Shown here: in pieces, positions 30,139 through 39,841 of the stretch | Numbering within the stretch: position 1 is the first letter of the stretch | How the letters are laid out: each line of letters starts with the position of its first letter | Assembly (NCBI RefSeq): GCF_044324875.1 | Contig: NZ_CP172185.1 | DNA: 64,000 nucleotides | DNA from: Escherichia coli | GTDB taxonomy: Bacteria > Pseudomonadota > Gammaproteobacteria > Enterobacterales > Enterobacteriaceae | Reading direction: 5' to 3' (one strand) | Made by a program: the position numbers and the translations under genes | The notes under the pieces: generated by a model | What the model saw: the letters and a program-made list of their open reading frames with translations, nothing else | What the model was told of the DNA's origin: nothing | Database searches by the model: none

Positions 30139-31635
30139 TCAGAACCAGGTTTCCATCTGAACGCCAAAATTCCATTCCCCGCCTGCATTAAACCCGCTAC
30201 CGCCGAAAGCATCATCACTGGCGTAGTTATCCAGTCTGCTGCTCCAGTCCATCCAGGTGGCGAACAGACGCAGTTCCGGACGGCTGAAGAAGTCCCCCAG
30301 ACCTCCTGCCTTGAGGGTGGGCGCAAACGTCAGCTTGTAAAAACTGCCGTTAACAGCATTGCGGTCCTTATACCCTTCAGGTTTCAGATCCATGTACTGG
30401 TAAGTGCCCTCAAACGCCAGCGCAAAATTCTGCGTCACCTCCTTAATCAAGCGGGTGTTCAGGGTCACCCATTCATAACTGTCTCCACGGGCATAGCGAT
30501 CCTTACTGCCCTGCGCCATGACTGACGGGGCGATATGCCAGCCGTTTCCGAGCGGGGTGGTACCATATGCAGCAAGACGCCAAGTATCCGCATCACTGCG
30601 TAGTGCACCGTCAGAGCCAATCCCCTTCACTTCCGCCCCCAGACCATGCCCGTACAGAAGTGCTATTTTCGCCGTTCCCTCACGTAATCCCCAGAAACTG
30701 TCATTATGAAGTCCGGCCAACACATGCACACCGTGGCTGGCGGCACTGGCATGGATAAGGTCGCCATTATTGTCCCTGCGGTCATCATTATCCTTTGCCC
30801 GCATACCGCTGACCATAAGCTGGAACGGCCCGGCAAAGTGGTTCATGGTAAGGATATAGTTCTGGACGTTGTTATCGATATCCTCCATCTCCCCGAAATT
30901 GCGTCCATACAGGGAGAAGTTACTGCGCAGAGTGTCGTTCCATTTCACGTCATAGATACCGCCCCCGGTTCCGCCGAGGAAAACCACGTCCGAGTCCAGC
31001 CAGTGGATATCAAAGTTGTCACGATCGAAACGTTTACCCGCCCATACCGTACTGTGCTTCAGCGGCCCGGTGAAGTCCGGCAGATTTCCCAGTTCAGCCA
31101 CCACCTGGCGGACGTTAAGGTCACTGGAGTTCGCCGACCAGTCGTTATAGGTTTTCTGACCATCCGCCAGCATCACCTTAAACCGGGTGGTGGCCCCGCT
31201 TTCGAGCGTCTTTTTGTGCTCAAACACGGTTTCCACATAAGTGTCTCCCTCATTCCCGAGGCGCCCGACCGAGCCACCGGTCTCTCCGGCAGGCGTCAGA
31301 TACGGACCACTTTTGCTGCCGGATGCGGCATCGTTCATCAGCAGACCCGAGCGGGCATAACCGTGAAACTCAAAACCACTATTGTCCGCTTTCTTTTCCG
31401 GTGGTACGGATACGGTCTGTGGCACAACAGGTTGTGTCGCCGGGGTGGCGGCCAGTTGCTGCACCTGCTGTTCTGTAGCGGTTGCCCGTGATTCAGCCTT
31501 CTGAGCACGGGTTTCAGCATCCTGAAGCCGTTTTTCCAGGGCCGCCAGCCGGGCTTCAATACTGTCGGTATTCCCCGCCGCAAAGACCGGGGAACAGGCC
31601 AGCAGAATGGTACACGAGAGAAGGTGTTTTTTCAT
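30139..31635 (-). CDS. rafY: LamB/ScrY-family sugar porin (raffinose/sucrose glycoporin)
   Basis: 498-aa ORF with signal peptide, N-terminal coiled-coil extension and C-terminal ...[14 protein letters not shown]. Confidence 0.7.
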
Positions 31636-31734
31636 TTTTATATCCTTGTAAAAATAGAGGTATTGTTGACAGCTAAATCGATTTAGTCACCCGCAACAAA
31701 AATGACGTGCACAACGGTTACGGGCAGGAAACGG

Positions 31735-32661
31735 TCAGGGGTGTTTCAGTAAATCCTGGCGACGGGGTAACGCTGTCATGGCACCTTTTGCTGTCGTGGC
31801 AAGCGCACCACAGCGCTGGGCCTGTTCGATGACGGATGCGAGTGCCTGCTCACCGGAGGGCATCCCCTCTGCCGCCAGCGCTGCCAGCAGACCTGCCACG
31901 AAGGCGTCACCGGCACCGGTCGTGTCCACACTCACCACCGGTGTTGCCGGGAAGTACAGGTTTTTTCCCTGCCAGCGAGCCATCACGCCATCCTTTCCTT
32001 GGGTTACCAGCAGCAGCGCCAGGGGATAATGTGATGCCAGAACATCGGTTCCCTTCCGGACATCCTGTTCACCGCTGATAAAGAACAGTTCCTCTTCCGA
32101 TACCTTTGCCACATCCGCCAGCATGAGCGCCCGGTGCAGACACTCACGCAGTTGCGATATGCTCTGCCACAGGTCAGTCCGGATGTTGGGGTCAAAGCTG
32201 ACCCTGCCGCCAGCCTGCCGGATGTTCTCCATGGCCTGAAACGTGGCGCTGCGGCAGGGCTCTGCACTCAGGGCATTGGAGCAGGTATGCAGCCATTCAC
32301 CGGCACGAAAGGGCGGTAAATCATCAGGGGTAAGGAAAAGGTCTGCCGAAGGGCGCACCATAAATGTGAAGGTTCGTTCACCACCCGGCACCAGCGACAC
32401 CACCACTGTGGAAGTCCGGTACAGAGGGTCGGTATGCATATACGCCGTGTCCACACCCTCATCAGCCAGGGTTTTGCGCATAAAACGCCCGAAAGGGTCA
32501 TCCCCCACACACCCGACAAACCCGCTCAGGCCCCCCAGTCGGGCCACGCCCACGGCAACATTGGCAGGCGCACCACCAGGGCACTGCAACAGCGTGCCCG
32601 GCTTCTCCGGTAATAAATCCACCACGGCATCACCGAGACCCCATACTTTTACTGTACTCAT
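31735..32661 (-). CDS. PfkB-family sugar kinase (fructokinase-like)
   Basis: 308-aa ORF with ribokinase-family motifs (GGAPANVAVGVARLG, DTTGAGDAFVAGLL). Confidence 0.75.
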   Translation of the reverse strand: MSTVKVWGLGDAVVDLLPEKPGTLLQCPGGAPANVAVGVARLGGLSGFVGCVGDDPFGRFMRKTLADEGVDTAYMHTDPLYRTSTVVVSLVPGGERTFTFMVRPSADLFLTPDDLPPFRAGEWLHTCSNALSAEPCRSATFQAMENIRQAGGRVSFDPNIRTDLWQSISQLRECLHRALMLADVAKVSEEELFFISGEQDVRKGTDVLASHYPLALLLVTQGKDGVMARWQGKNLYFPATPVVSVDTTGAGDAFVAGLLAALAAEGMPSGEQALASVIEQAQRCGALATTAKGAMTALPRRQDLLKHP

Positions 32662-38737: not shown

Positions 38738-38830
38738 AAGACATCTCCGTTTTCGGGTATGCCTTACTGTTGATCCGAATCGTTTCGGATAGCAACCGAA
38801 ACGATTCGGATTTGTGAGCGGGATTAAAAA

Positions 38831-39841
38831 TCAGGCGGAGGGAGCAAGCGTTGTCTTGCCAGGATGAAATTCCGGCTGCCAGAGTACTTGTAGCATTTCA
38901 GGTGAAACATTCGTGACCAGCTGGCGTATCATGTCGGCAATCTGACGACCGACGCGATGTCGTGTTGACTGAAGAACTGCAGCCACATCCTGTTCAATAA
39001 TACTGTCCTGCGGCAGACCATCATAAACCACAAGAGAGACGGCATCCTCTCCGGACAGATGACCGGATAACTGCAGCGACATGGCCGCGCCATCACCGAT
39101 CAGGTCACTGTCGGTAATAATGGCCGTCGGGGGAAGCGGAAGTGACATTAACTCAGTCACTGCCTGGAAACCTGAGCGTCGGGTGGGAGAGACCCGGCGT
39201 AGCCAGGTCTCAGGCAGACCATGTTCACTCAGGGCATCGCGCCATCCCTGACGTCGTGCAGTGACATAGGCACGGGAGTTGTCCTCACTCAGCAGGGCAA
39301 TTCGCTGATGGCCCAGGGCAATCAGGTGCTGTGTGGCCTGCCAGGTTCCTGCATGGTTATCAAAGTCAAACCAGGCACAGGGAAGACCGGACGGCACCTG
39401 ACCGAGTGCCAGAAACGGAATACCGGCCTCCTGCAGGTGTGTAAGACGCGGGTCATTATCCATCGTGTGCGCCACGATAAGGGCATCAACCCGGCGGCTT
39501 TCGACCAGACGCATATAGCTGTGGCTGTCAGCCCGTTCATCATCGGCTATCAGCAGTAAGTCAATATCATGGCGGGCCAGTTCCCGGCTGATACAACTGA
39601 CCATATCCACAAACACACTACTGCTGAACAGTACAGCATGTTCAGGGAAGACCAGGCCGACCGCATCGGTTTTACCGGTTTTGAGACGTCTTGCCAGGGT
39701 ATTCGGGCGATAACCACGACGCCGAGCTTCCGCTTCTACACGTGCACGGGTCGAAGCGGAAACGTCCGAAAATCCGCCAAGCGCCCGGCTGACTGTGGTG
39801 ACAGAGATCCCGAGTTCGGCGGCGATAGCCTTGAGTGACAT
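38831..39841 (-). CDS. rafR: LacI-family transcriptional repressor (raffinose operon repressor type)
   Basis: 336-aa ORF with N-terminal helix-turn-helix (LKAIAAELGISVTTVSRALGG) and periplasmic-binding-fold domain. Confidence 0.7.
   Translation of the reverse strand: MSLKAIAAELGISVTTVSRALGGFSDVSASTRARVEAEARRRGYRPNTLARRLKTGKTDAVGLVFPEHAVLFSSSVFVDMVSCISRELARHDIDLLLIADDERADSHSYMRLVESRRVDALIVAHTMDNDPRLTHLQEAGIPFLALGQVPSGLPCAWFDFDNHAGTWQATQHLIALGHQRIALLSEDNSRAYVTARRQGWRDALSEHGLPETWLRRVSPTRRSGFQAVTELMSLPLPPTAIITDSDLIGDGAAMSLQLSGHLSGEDAVSLVVYDGLPQDSIIEQDVAAVLQSTRHRVGRQIADMIRQLVTNVSPEMLQVLWQPEFHPGKTTLAPSA

Follow-up and report, generated by a model that had tools for sequence, protein, structure and literature searches.

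The described systems that come closest to the locus reported here are the classical plasmid raffinose operon (pRSD2 type, rafR-rafA-rafB-rafD-rafY), the sucrose regulon of the phosphotransferase system (PTS), scrK-scrY-scrA-scrB-scrR, of pUR400, Klebsiella and IncF plasmids, and the non-PTS csc regulon (cscB-cscK-cscA-cscR), in which, as expected for the present locus too, sucrose is hydrolysed in the cytoplasm and the fructose is then phosphorylated. The locus lies at positions 30069–40175 of a 64,000-nucleotide stretch of Escherichia coli DNA (contig NZ_CP172185.1, assembly GCF_044324875.1), the whole of which is called the window below. It carries eight co-oriented genes on the minus strand: rafR, rafA, rafB, rafD, crr2 (a paralogue of the gene for the PTS protein EIIA-Glc), a pseudogene of the DUF2913 family, a fructokinase gene and a gene for a ScrY-type porin. 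We consider it highly likely that this is a horizontally acquired and probably functional raffinose cassette, a mosaic that has diverged from the classical plasmid raf operon. Each of the seven functional genes passes a curated family cut-off or has a decisive E-value (Table 1).

The first four genes have the same order and orientation as in the classical operon, and aligning their products with those of that operon gives identities of 79–88%. Twin palindromic operators in the rafA promoter are common to both systems. Read on the transcribed (minus) strand, the predicted RafR-type operators of the cassette are CCGAATCGTTTCGG at 38796–38809 and CCGAAACGATTCGG at 38775–38788. Through an alignment of the classical, Klebsiella michiganensis and present rafR-rafA spacers, it was found that both palindromes and the sequence from there to the rafA start are kept across the three raf lineages. 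The GH32 motifs WMNDPNG, RDP and ECP are invariant in the alignment of RafD. Both systems are plasmid-borne and associated with the insertion sequence (IS) IS2. In contrast, the DNA identity between them is only about 80% and ends near the rafD stop codon, and the place of RafY is taken by crr2, the DUF2913 pseudogene, the fructokinase and the ScrY-type porin. A protein comparison with classical RafY detected no homologue downstream of rafD in the cassette.

The limits of the cassette are given by one gap-free match of 10,107 bp, at 99.18% identity, to the IncFII plasmid NZ_CP022492.1 of Salmonella Saintpaul. Since the plasmid DNA on either side of this match is unrelated to the flanks in the window, the match defines the cassette as 30069–40175, which is slightly larger than the 30139–39841 first reported. 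The unit ends 70 bp beyond the porin stop codon on one side and exactly at the junction with IS2 on the other, where the start of IS2 coincides with the end of homology to the Salmonella plasmid. The twin operators are identical in the plasmid copy.

Composition also sets the cassette apart from its surroundings. The GC content (guanine plus cytosine) of 30139–39841 is 57.1%, compared with 48.9% for the rest of the window, 49.5% for the 10 kb to the left and 43.6% for the 10 kb to the right; this span is the maximum of the window among spans of about 10 kb, and the complete cassette has 56.6%. On the left lie partial transposase genes of IS66 (27774–28322), an IS3-family element (28513–29334) and an IS256-family element (29366–29902). 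Their matches span only the C-terminal parts of the NCBIfam profiles, and the RefSeq annotation of near-identical genomes concurs. On the right, IS2 begins at 40176 with its left terminal inverted repeat (IRL), TAGACTGGCCCCCTGAATCTCC; matches to the TnpA and TnpB families are both present, and RefSeq flags an internal stop. The original prediction, made from the letters of the DNA, had described a GC-rich, co-oriented block of rafR, rafA, rafB, rafD, an EIIA-like gene, a fructokinase and a porin, bounded by IS3, IS66 and IS256 fragments on one side and IS2 on the other and in keeping with import from a plasmid or another enterobacterium, and each of these elements of the description was borne out.

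The distribution of the cassette argues for import as well. Of 5426 complete E. coli genomes, 184 (3.4%) have it at 99% identity or more, a carrier being counted when at least 80% of the cassette lay in one place; many carriers come from poultry or pigs. The crr2-DUF2913 segment occurs in 222 genomes, so that some copies appear to be truncated. Nine plasmids of E. coli and Salmonella, of IncF and other types, carry the cassette at 99.2–99.9% identity; the eight besides that of Salmonella Saintpaul are 99.8–99.9% identical; poultry is their main source, and one is from human faeces. The chromosomal contexts are varied, at least three being represented. In the window, a gene for a P4-type integrase (51289–52497) stands at the end of the island and is followed by core phoH, efeB, efeO and putP; in strain LR-31 a near-identical segment adjoins dgcT/pgaA; and in the duck strain RCAD0514 the cassette lies in an island by ssrA/ypjA with a different integrase. 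The fragment of IS1414 (IS256 family), the IS3 fragment with a group II intron and IS2 accompany the E. coli copies but not the Salmonella IncFII copy, which indicates that the cassette is accessory, has spread recently and has been moved by recombination in IS-rich DNA.

Table 1. Features of the raffinose cassette and its immediate flanks, by position in the window
Feature	Position	Strand	Basis
Left IS debris: fragments of IS66 tnpC, an IS3-family and an IS256-family (IS1414) element	27754–29903	plus	NCBIfam transposase matches
Whole raffinose cassette	30069–40175	minus	Minimal unit common to independent contexts
Strong hairpin 6 nt past the porin stop codon	30108–30133	minus	12-bp stem, −24.6 kcal/mol, no canonical U run
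ScrY-type sucrose/oligosaccharide porin, 498 amino acids	30139–31635	minus	PDB 1A0S sucrose porin, E=8e-222, residues 86–498
Palindrome CTAAATCGATTTAG, presumed orphan ScrR-type operator	31673–31686	minus	In the 99-nt scrK-scrY spacer; alignment with the plasmid scr regulon
scrK/cscK-type fructokinase, 308 amino acids	31735–32661	minus	NF006957, 476 bits (cut-off 450)
DUF2913 pseudogene	32691–33267	minus	Two frames: N-terminal piece 33064–33267, C-terminal piece 32691–33002
crr2, EIIA-Glc paralogue, 171 amino acids	33273–33788	minus	NF006962 'PTS glucose transporter subunit IIA', 234.8 bits (cut-off 212)
Hairpin in the 63-nt rafD-crr2 spacer	33822–33842	minus	9-bp G+C-rich stem, −16.7 kcal/mol, no U tract
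rafD, GH32 invertase, 476 amino acids	33852–35282	minus	TIGR01322, 445 bits (cut-off 356); 83% to classical RafD
rafB, LacY-family oligosaccharide/H+ symporter, 425 amino acids	35279–36556	minus	TIGR00882, 679 bits (cut-off 220); 88% to classical RafB
rafA, GH36 alpha-galactosidase, 708 amino acids	36611–38737	minus	Pfam Glyco_hydro_36N, Melibiase (E=8e-115), Glyco_hydro_36C; 87% to classical RafA
rafA promoter region with twin RafR-type operators (predicted)	38775–38809	minus	Alignment with classical and Klebsiella michiganensis rafR-rafA spacers
rafR, LacI-family repressor, 336 amino acids	38831–39841	minus	LacI-family NCBIfam matches; 79% amino-acid identity to RafR of a classical raf plasmid
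Degenerate full-length IS2 touching the right cassette edge	40176–41506	plus	96.2% over 1332 bp to annotated IS2

Going by the roles of the families, a complete route for raffinose can be proposed. The ScrY-type porin would let raffinose pass the outer membrane, RafB would import it together with a proton, RafA would split it into galactose and sucrose, and RafD would split the sucrose into glucose and fructose. The fructokinase of the cassette would then phosphorylate fructose to fructose-6-phosphate, so that the cell would have no need to excrete fructose and import it again. RafR is expected to repress the rafA promoter at the two operators until an alpha-galactoside inducer arrives. The gaps between the genes from rafA to the kinase are 54, −4, 63, 5 and 29 nt (the stop codon of rafB overlaps the start of rafD by 4 nt), and these short distances suggest read-through from the rafA promoter as far as the kinase gene. 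The porin gene may use an additional relic scr promoter, the repressor gene of which is absent. The hairpin between rafD and crr2 could be an attenuator or an element of mRNA stability. A scan of 29400–41600 against Rfam gave no known RNA element. The long open reading frames (ORFs) antisense to the genes, on the plus strand at 30706–31491, 33424–33900, 34608–35405 and 35471–36349, have no credible family matches and were set aside as shadow ORFs of GC-rich DNA.

What the original prediction had called an EIIA-like gene is indeed present; it is, however, no stray fragment but a complete, diverged paralogue of Crr that travels with rafD in other genera as well. The crr2 product has the length and belongs to the fold family of housekeeping EIIA-Glc (Crr), aligns end to end with EIIA-Glc chains in the PDB, and keeps both active-site histidines, His75 and His90, as well as the N-terminal amphipathic segment. 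In contrast, its identity to K-12 Crr is only 59%, with 68% DNA identity to core crr, and core crr is present in every host besides crr2. Nothing intermediate was found: the search of 5.8 billion proteins gave no relative of crr2 at 66–96% identity, and the complete E. coli genomes hold no crr2-DUF2913 segment at 80–99% identity and nothing between it and core crr. In a profile search of the same proteins the paralogue family comprised five clusters at 90% identity only, with a score gap to canonical Crr.

When four raf-linked paralogues and twelve canonical Crr proteins, the latter drawn from three orders, were placed in a neighbour-joining tree, the paralogues formed one clade in 100 of 100 bootstraps. 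Canonical Crr is 82–88% identical across these orders, whereas the paralogues are 58–66% identical to canonical Crr and 61–75% among themselves. At the 103 columns invariant in canonical Crr, 65 are kept in all four paralogues and 13 are altered in all four, including E43G, E80K/R, D94N/S, E97D and a one-residue insertion; crr2 itself has 26 changes at such columns. We take several of the altered acidic residues to ring the active site and to contact HPr and other partners, which serves as a lead only. Judged by sequence, crr2 is not orthologous to housekeeping crr and belongs to a separate, fast-evolving clade.

The pairing of rafD with a crr paralogue recurs, as became apparent from the few protein matches that scored slightly above canonical Crr. 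In the present cassette, in Klebsiella michiganensis (locus L014, 6505–8513) and in Citrobacter braakii (locus L017, 6507–8513), a GH32 gene is followed after 63–66 nt by a gene for an EIIA protein of 170 or 171 amino acids. The Klebsiella and Citrobacter pairs stand near rafR, rafA and rafB, and their paralogues fall in the clade of crr2. These two clusters differ from the present cassette in gene order, have proteins that are only 61–78% identical (RafD 69%, EIIA 61–63%), encode a RafY-type porin (Porin_8), and lack the fructokinase, ScrY and DUF2913 genes; they have no EIIBC gene nearby.

Because the linkage of rafD and crr recurs, a raf-related function for crr2 can be proposed. RafB is regulated by EIIA-Glc according to Titgemeyer et al. 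1994, as cited in PMC4996493. Most likely, crr2 would act as a raf-dedicated regulator that tunes the PTS-dependent control of RafB or cyclic AMP (cAMP) signalling while raffinose is used, although this is the least certain step of the scheme. Two routes are conceivable. The paralogue may compete with housekeeping Crr at RafB, by which inducer exclusion would be relieved or reshaped, or it may buffer EIIA phosphorylation and cAMP signalling against the glucose freed inside the cell from raffinose. Since the paralogues would be co-expressed with RafB, they could rewire the glucose-dependent control of raffinose use, and we suggest tentatively, as a possibility that is more doubtful than probable, that the raf-linked EIIA-Glc paralogues, i.e. 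crr2 and those of Klebsiella michiganensis and Citrobacter braakii, form a small family of PTS signalling proteins encoded in operons, one that has so far escaped notice.

The alternative that comes off best is that crr2 is a passenger, a redundant or drifting copy of housekeeping EIIA-Glc that came to lie beside rafD by chance. Its score above the NCBIfam equivalog cut-off and its two histidines allow it simply to duplicate Crr, its many changes at canonical-invariant columns show fast evolution, and the gene downstream of it is a pseudogene. However, all hosts have core crr already; the pair has been kept with the same spacing in three raf lineages in which RafD is only 69% identical, with the EIIA ORF at full length in all of them; and the 13 shared derived changes within a single clade point to a shared, altered constraint rather than drift. 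We regard a mere passenger as a serious but somewhat unlikely explanation.

A related side observation concerns the junction of crr2 with the next gene. The database protein P0182 (E. coli, 115 amino acids, on 32 contigs) combines an EIIA domain with 98% identity to residues 1–59 of the DUF2913 product. In some copies of the cassette, then, the reading frame of a crr2 variant seems to run on into the start of the DUF2913 gene, which lies only 5 nt past the crr2 stop codon.

The kinase and porin genes have another ancestry. They follow the scrK to scrY order of the PTS sucrose regulon, the products being 69% identical to plasmid ScrK and, over the full length, 76% identical to plasmid ScrY; the kinase is also 72% identical to that of a Providencia csc locus. 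The porin matches the crystal structure of ScrY, and its match to RafY is only 33% over 73 amino acids, which is no real similarity. A palindrome of the plasmid scrK-scrY spacer is conserved too: the one in the cassette aligns with one of the two CTAAA(T/C)CGGTTTAG palindromes, i.e. CTAAA(T/C)CG(G/A)TTTAG, of the plasmid regulon. It reads CTAAATCGATTTAG here and CTGAATCGATTTAG in the Salmonella plasmid copy, and since it aligns with the scr spacer it may be an operator of ScrR type, in a cassette that has no scrR. One half-site of the Salmonella version presumably resembles the Cra/FruR consensus. Unlike the scr regulon, the cassette has kept only one of the two spacer palindromes and has a hairpin after scrY. 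Neither the list of ORFs nor the NCBIfam matches gave any scrA, scrB, scrR or cscB in 30069–40175, and RafR is only 26% identical to ScrR. By their sequences, then, the kinase and porin genes are the front end of an scr regulon from which scrA, scrB and scrR are missing. The hairpin past the porin probably marks the natural end of the transcription unit rather than a cut made by an IS element. An scrKYABR operon truncated by an IS was rejected as the simplest reading, given the strong hairpin, the lack of any scrA remnant past the porin and the same end in the Salmonella copy.

It follows that two claims of the original prediction stand in part. The porin it listed among the raf genes is there, as an orthologue of ScrY rather than as the RafY of a raf operon; and of a module for raffinose and sucrose, the raffinose half is supported by the raf-type genes, whereas an scr front end that lacks scrA, scrB and scrR does not establish growth on sucrose. 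The genes scrK and scrY are equally serviceable in the catabolism of raffinose.

A stronger version of the sucrose reading would have porin, kinase, invertase and EIIA protein act jointly on sucrose, the cassette being primarily an scr/csc-type sucrose module. Enteric ScrA requires EIIA-Glc, and this need could account for an EIIA gene in the cluster. The porin is of ScrY type and the kinase of ScrK/CscK type, and RafD is about 70% identical to csc-type invertases; the csc loci of E. coli, Providencia and Pluralibacter encode invertases and kinases with 63–73% identity to RafD and the kinase of the cassette. The cassette, however, contains neither the EIIBC gene scrA nor scrB, scrR or cscB, and RafD is only 37.5% identical to ScrB. 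Compared with the csc regulon, it lacks a CscB-type permease (RafB is 34–46% identical to the permeases of those loci) and CscR, and has an alpha-galactosidase and a raf-type regulator instead; the operators and the permease are of raf type as well. The Klebsiella and Citrobacter raf clusters with the rafD-crr pair likewise have no EIIBC gene nearby. A primarily sucrose-directed module is improbable in our judgement, and we prefer a raffinose cassette.

The small gene between crr2 and the kinase had been described as apparently frameshifted. It is indeed split over two frames, as a three-frame translation shows, and the joined halves match Pfam DUF2913 (PF11140) across the junction; it is the joined frames that match the family profile, not a single ORF of about 200 amino acids. 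The cause is more specific than the word frameshift implies. Alignment with intact homologues of 195–220 amino acids shows a gap of about 8 codons directly behind the conserved RFPR (in ALKQxRFPR), beyond which the alignment resumes in the other frame, so that the lesion is an out-of-frame internal deletion. A programmed frameshift was rejected, since about 8 codons are lost and there is no slippery site. All of the copies examined, the 99.2% Salmonella lineage among them, have the same fixed split. The search of 5.8 billion proteins gave no intact close orthologue, the best full-length match being 48% identical; one seeming variant at 80% (P0142) was discarded, since it proved to come from a copy of this cassette in an assembly so full of errors that every gene is fragmented. 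Intact DUF2913 homologues occur on plasmid backbones, adjoining TraI-type relaxases or IncFII repA. We read the pseudogene, on these relatives, as a probable fossil of a plasmid stage in the assembly of the cassette.

The cassette may have been assembled on a plasmid from three pieces: a raf block that already had the rafD-crr pair, a backbone DUF2913 gene that was later inactivated, and an scrK-scrY front end. Recombination between the IS elements around it would then, in recent times, have carried it into islands of E. coli and onto plasmids of both E. coli and Salmonella. Several points weigh against so favourable a picture of a mobile, working cassette. The three-piece assembly is a reconstruction and not an observation, and the role suggested for crr2 relies on linkage and on the known interaction of Crr with RafB. 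Expression, co-transcription and the binding of RafR are deduced from the DNA, and a scan for sigma-70 promoters gave 4 sites where 5.7 were expected from shuffled sequence, i.e. no excess. The cassette lies in heavily decayed, IS-ridden DNA and holds one pseudogene. Its two lineages differ by 38 nonsynonymous and 33 synonymous substitutions, a count that speaks for no more than moderate purifying selection and gives little power to judge individual genes. As to a donor, the matches listed from a scan of species-representative genomes (one per species) with the RafD alignment were csc-type loci only; the best RafD relative among them, in a csc locus of Providencia rustigianii, is 73% identical, and none has rafA or crr2 nearby, a negative of little weight given this coverage.

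Some of these points would equally suit a decaying, non-functional remnant that hitchhikes in an IS-ridden island and is intact only because it was acquired recently. IS fragments, the broken IS2 and other pseudogenes surround the cassette and a fixed pseudogene lies inside it; its E. coli copies, being at least 99% identical, have had little time to decay; the ratio of 38 to 33 does not speak for strong purifying selection; and the excess of genomes with the crr2 segment over those with most of the cassette indicates that some copies are truncated. In contrast, the 83 substitutions between the two lineages include no new stop codon and no indel, so that seven ORFs covering about 8.8 kb have stayed open in both; the operators are identical in the two lineages and the catalytic motifs are intact. 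The cassette persists across several independent contexts and hosts, and there is a positive association between raf genes and a raffinose-rich niche (PMC12987596, PMC12815263). We hold a dying remnant to be very improbable and retain a probably functional raffinose cassette. That the genes are core-genome paralogues of native composition is practically refuted, for although core relatives such as lacY, crr and lamB exist and give many matches at 60–80% identity, no more than 184 of 5426 genomes have the cassette, its site varies and it is also found on plasmids, its GC content (57% versus 49%) lies 8 points above that of the surroundings, and crr2 has 68% DNA identity to core crr with nothing intermediate.

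The rest of the window is rich in mobile DNA. Just left of the cassette, a remnant of the reading frame of astA (EAST1 enterotoxin) lies inside the IS1414 fragment at about 29428–29903, and a gene for a group II intron reverse transcriptase/maturase (ltrA) lies inside an IS3-family element at about 24200–27700, both according to the RefSeq annotation of near-identical genomes. An IS3-family element is present in full at 645–1955, 10290–11604, 17604–18914 and 19527–20837 (inverted), with a 796-bp fragment at 26959–27754. The four full copies, each about 1.31 kb and all within 27 kb, are 99.7–100% identical, which suggests a recent burst of transposition, and they are likely substrates for the rearrangements observed between strains. 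A type I restriction-modification system occupies 13387–24009, with the R gene at 13387–16404 and the M gene at 21550–24009; an ORF of 387 amino acids at 16419–17582 takes the place of the DUF4268 gene annotated in strain LR-31. Two inverted IS copies stand at the specificity-subunit end, where an hsdS remnant of 248 amino acids (20797–21543) is left, whereas the S gene of LR-31 is intact at 1326 bp. The system is probably inactive here or altered in specificity.

To the right of IS2, the region 42000–48500 is AT-rich (36–47% GC), and its large ORFs (e.g. 44687–46510, 607 amino acids) have no NCBIfam match. In the RefSeq annotation it has genes of the inovirus Gp2 type and, in the case of LR-31, a decayed fragment of a 'TOTE conflict system' primase; this region is probably a separate module of the island. 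An IS21-family element (istA 48750–50396, istB 50170–51168) adjoins the P4-type integrase gene, and the core genes that follow extend over 54219–61060. Detection of tRNA genes over the whole 64-kb window gave none, so that the attachment site of the island is not evident here.

No paper describing this arrangement was found in the literature. It is apparently undescribed, yet it is machine-annotated in hundreds of public genomes and all of its components come from known families. In genome-wide association studies (GWAS) of E. coli, raf genes are associated with chickens, which fits a raffinose-rich soybean feed; what they score is limited to the classical operon, with rafY and rafABD (PMC12987596, PMC12815263). 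Since the present variant lacks rafY and shares no more than about 80% DNA identity with that operon, it could be missed or mis-scored there, and this concerns about 3–4% of complete E. coli genomes.

In practical terms, the locus should be seen as another accessory sugar island, one that is expected to enable some strains of E. coli and Salmonella to grow on raffinose, a plant sugar. As regards mechanism, it presents a catabolic operon upgraded by modular capture, with a ScrY-type porin in place of RafY, a fructokinase that closes the pathway and a diverged copy of EIIA-Glc that accompanies the invertase in three raf lineages. The one element that could repay experiments is the clade of raf-linked EIIA-Glc paralogues. 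If crr2 modulates inducer exclusion or cAMP, the locus would neatly illustrate how a mobile element can tune the hierarchy of carbon sources in its host; otherwise it is ordinary. Should the proposal for the paralogues be true, a mobile catabolic cassette would bring along its own means to override the sugar hierarchy of its host.

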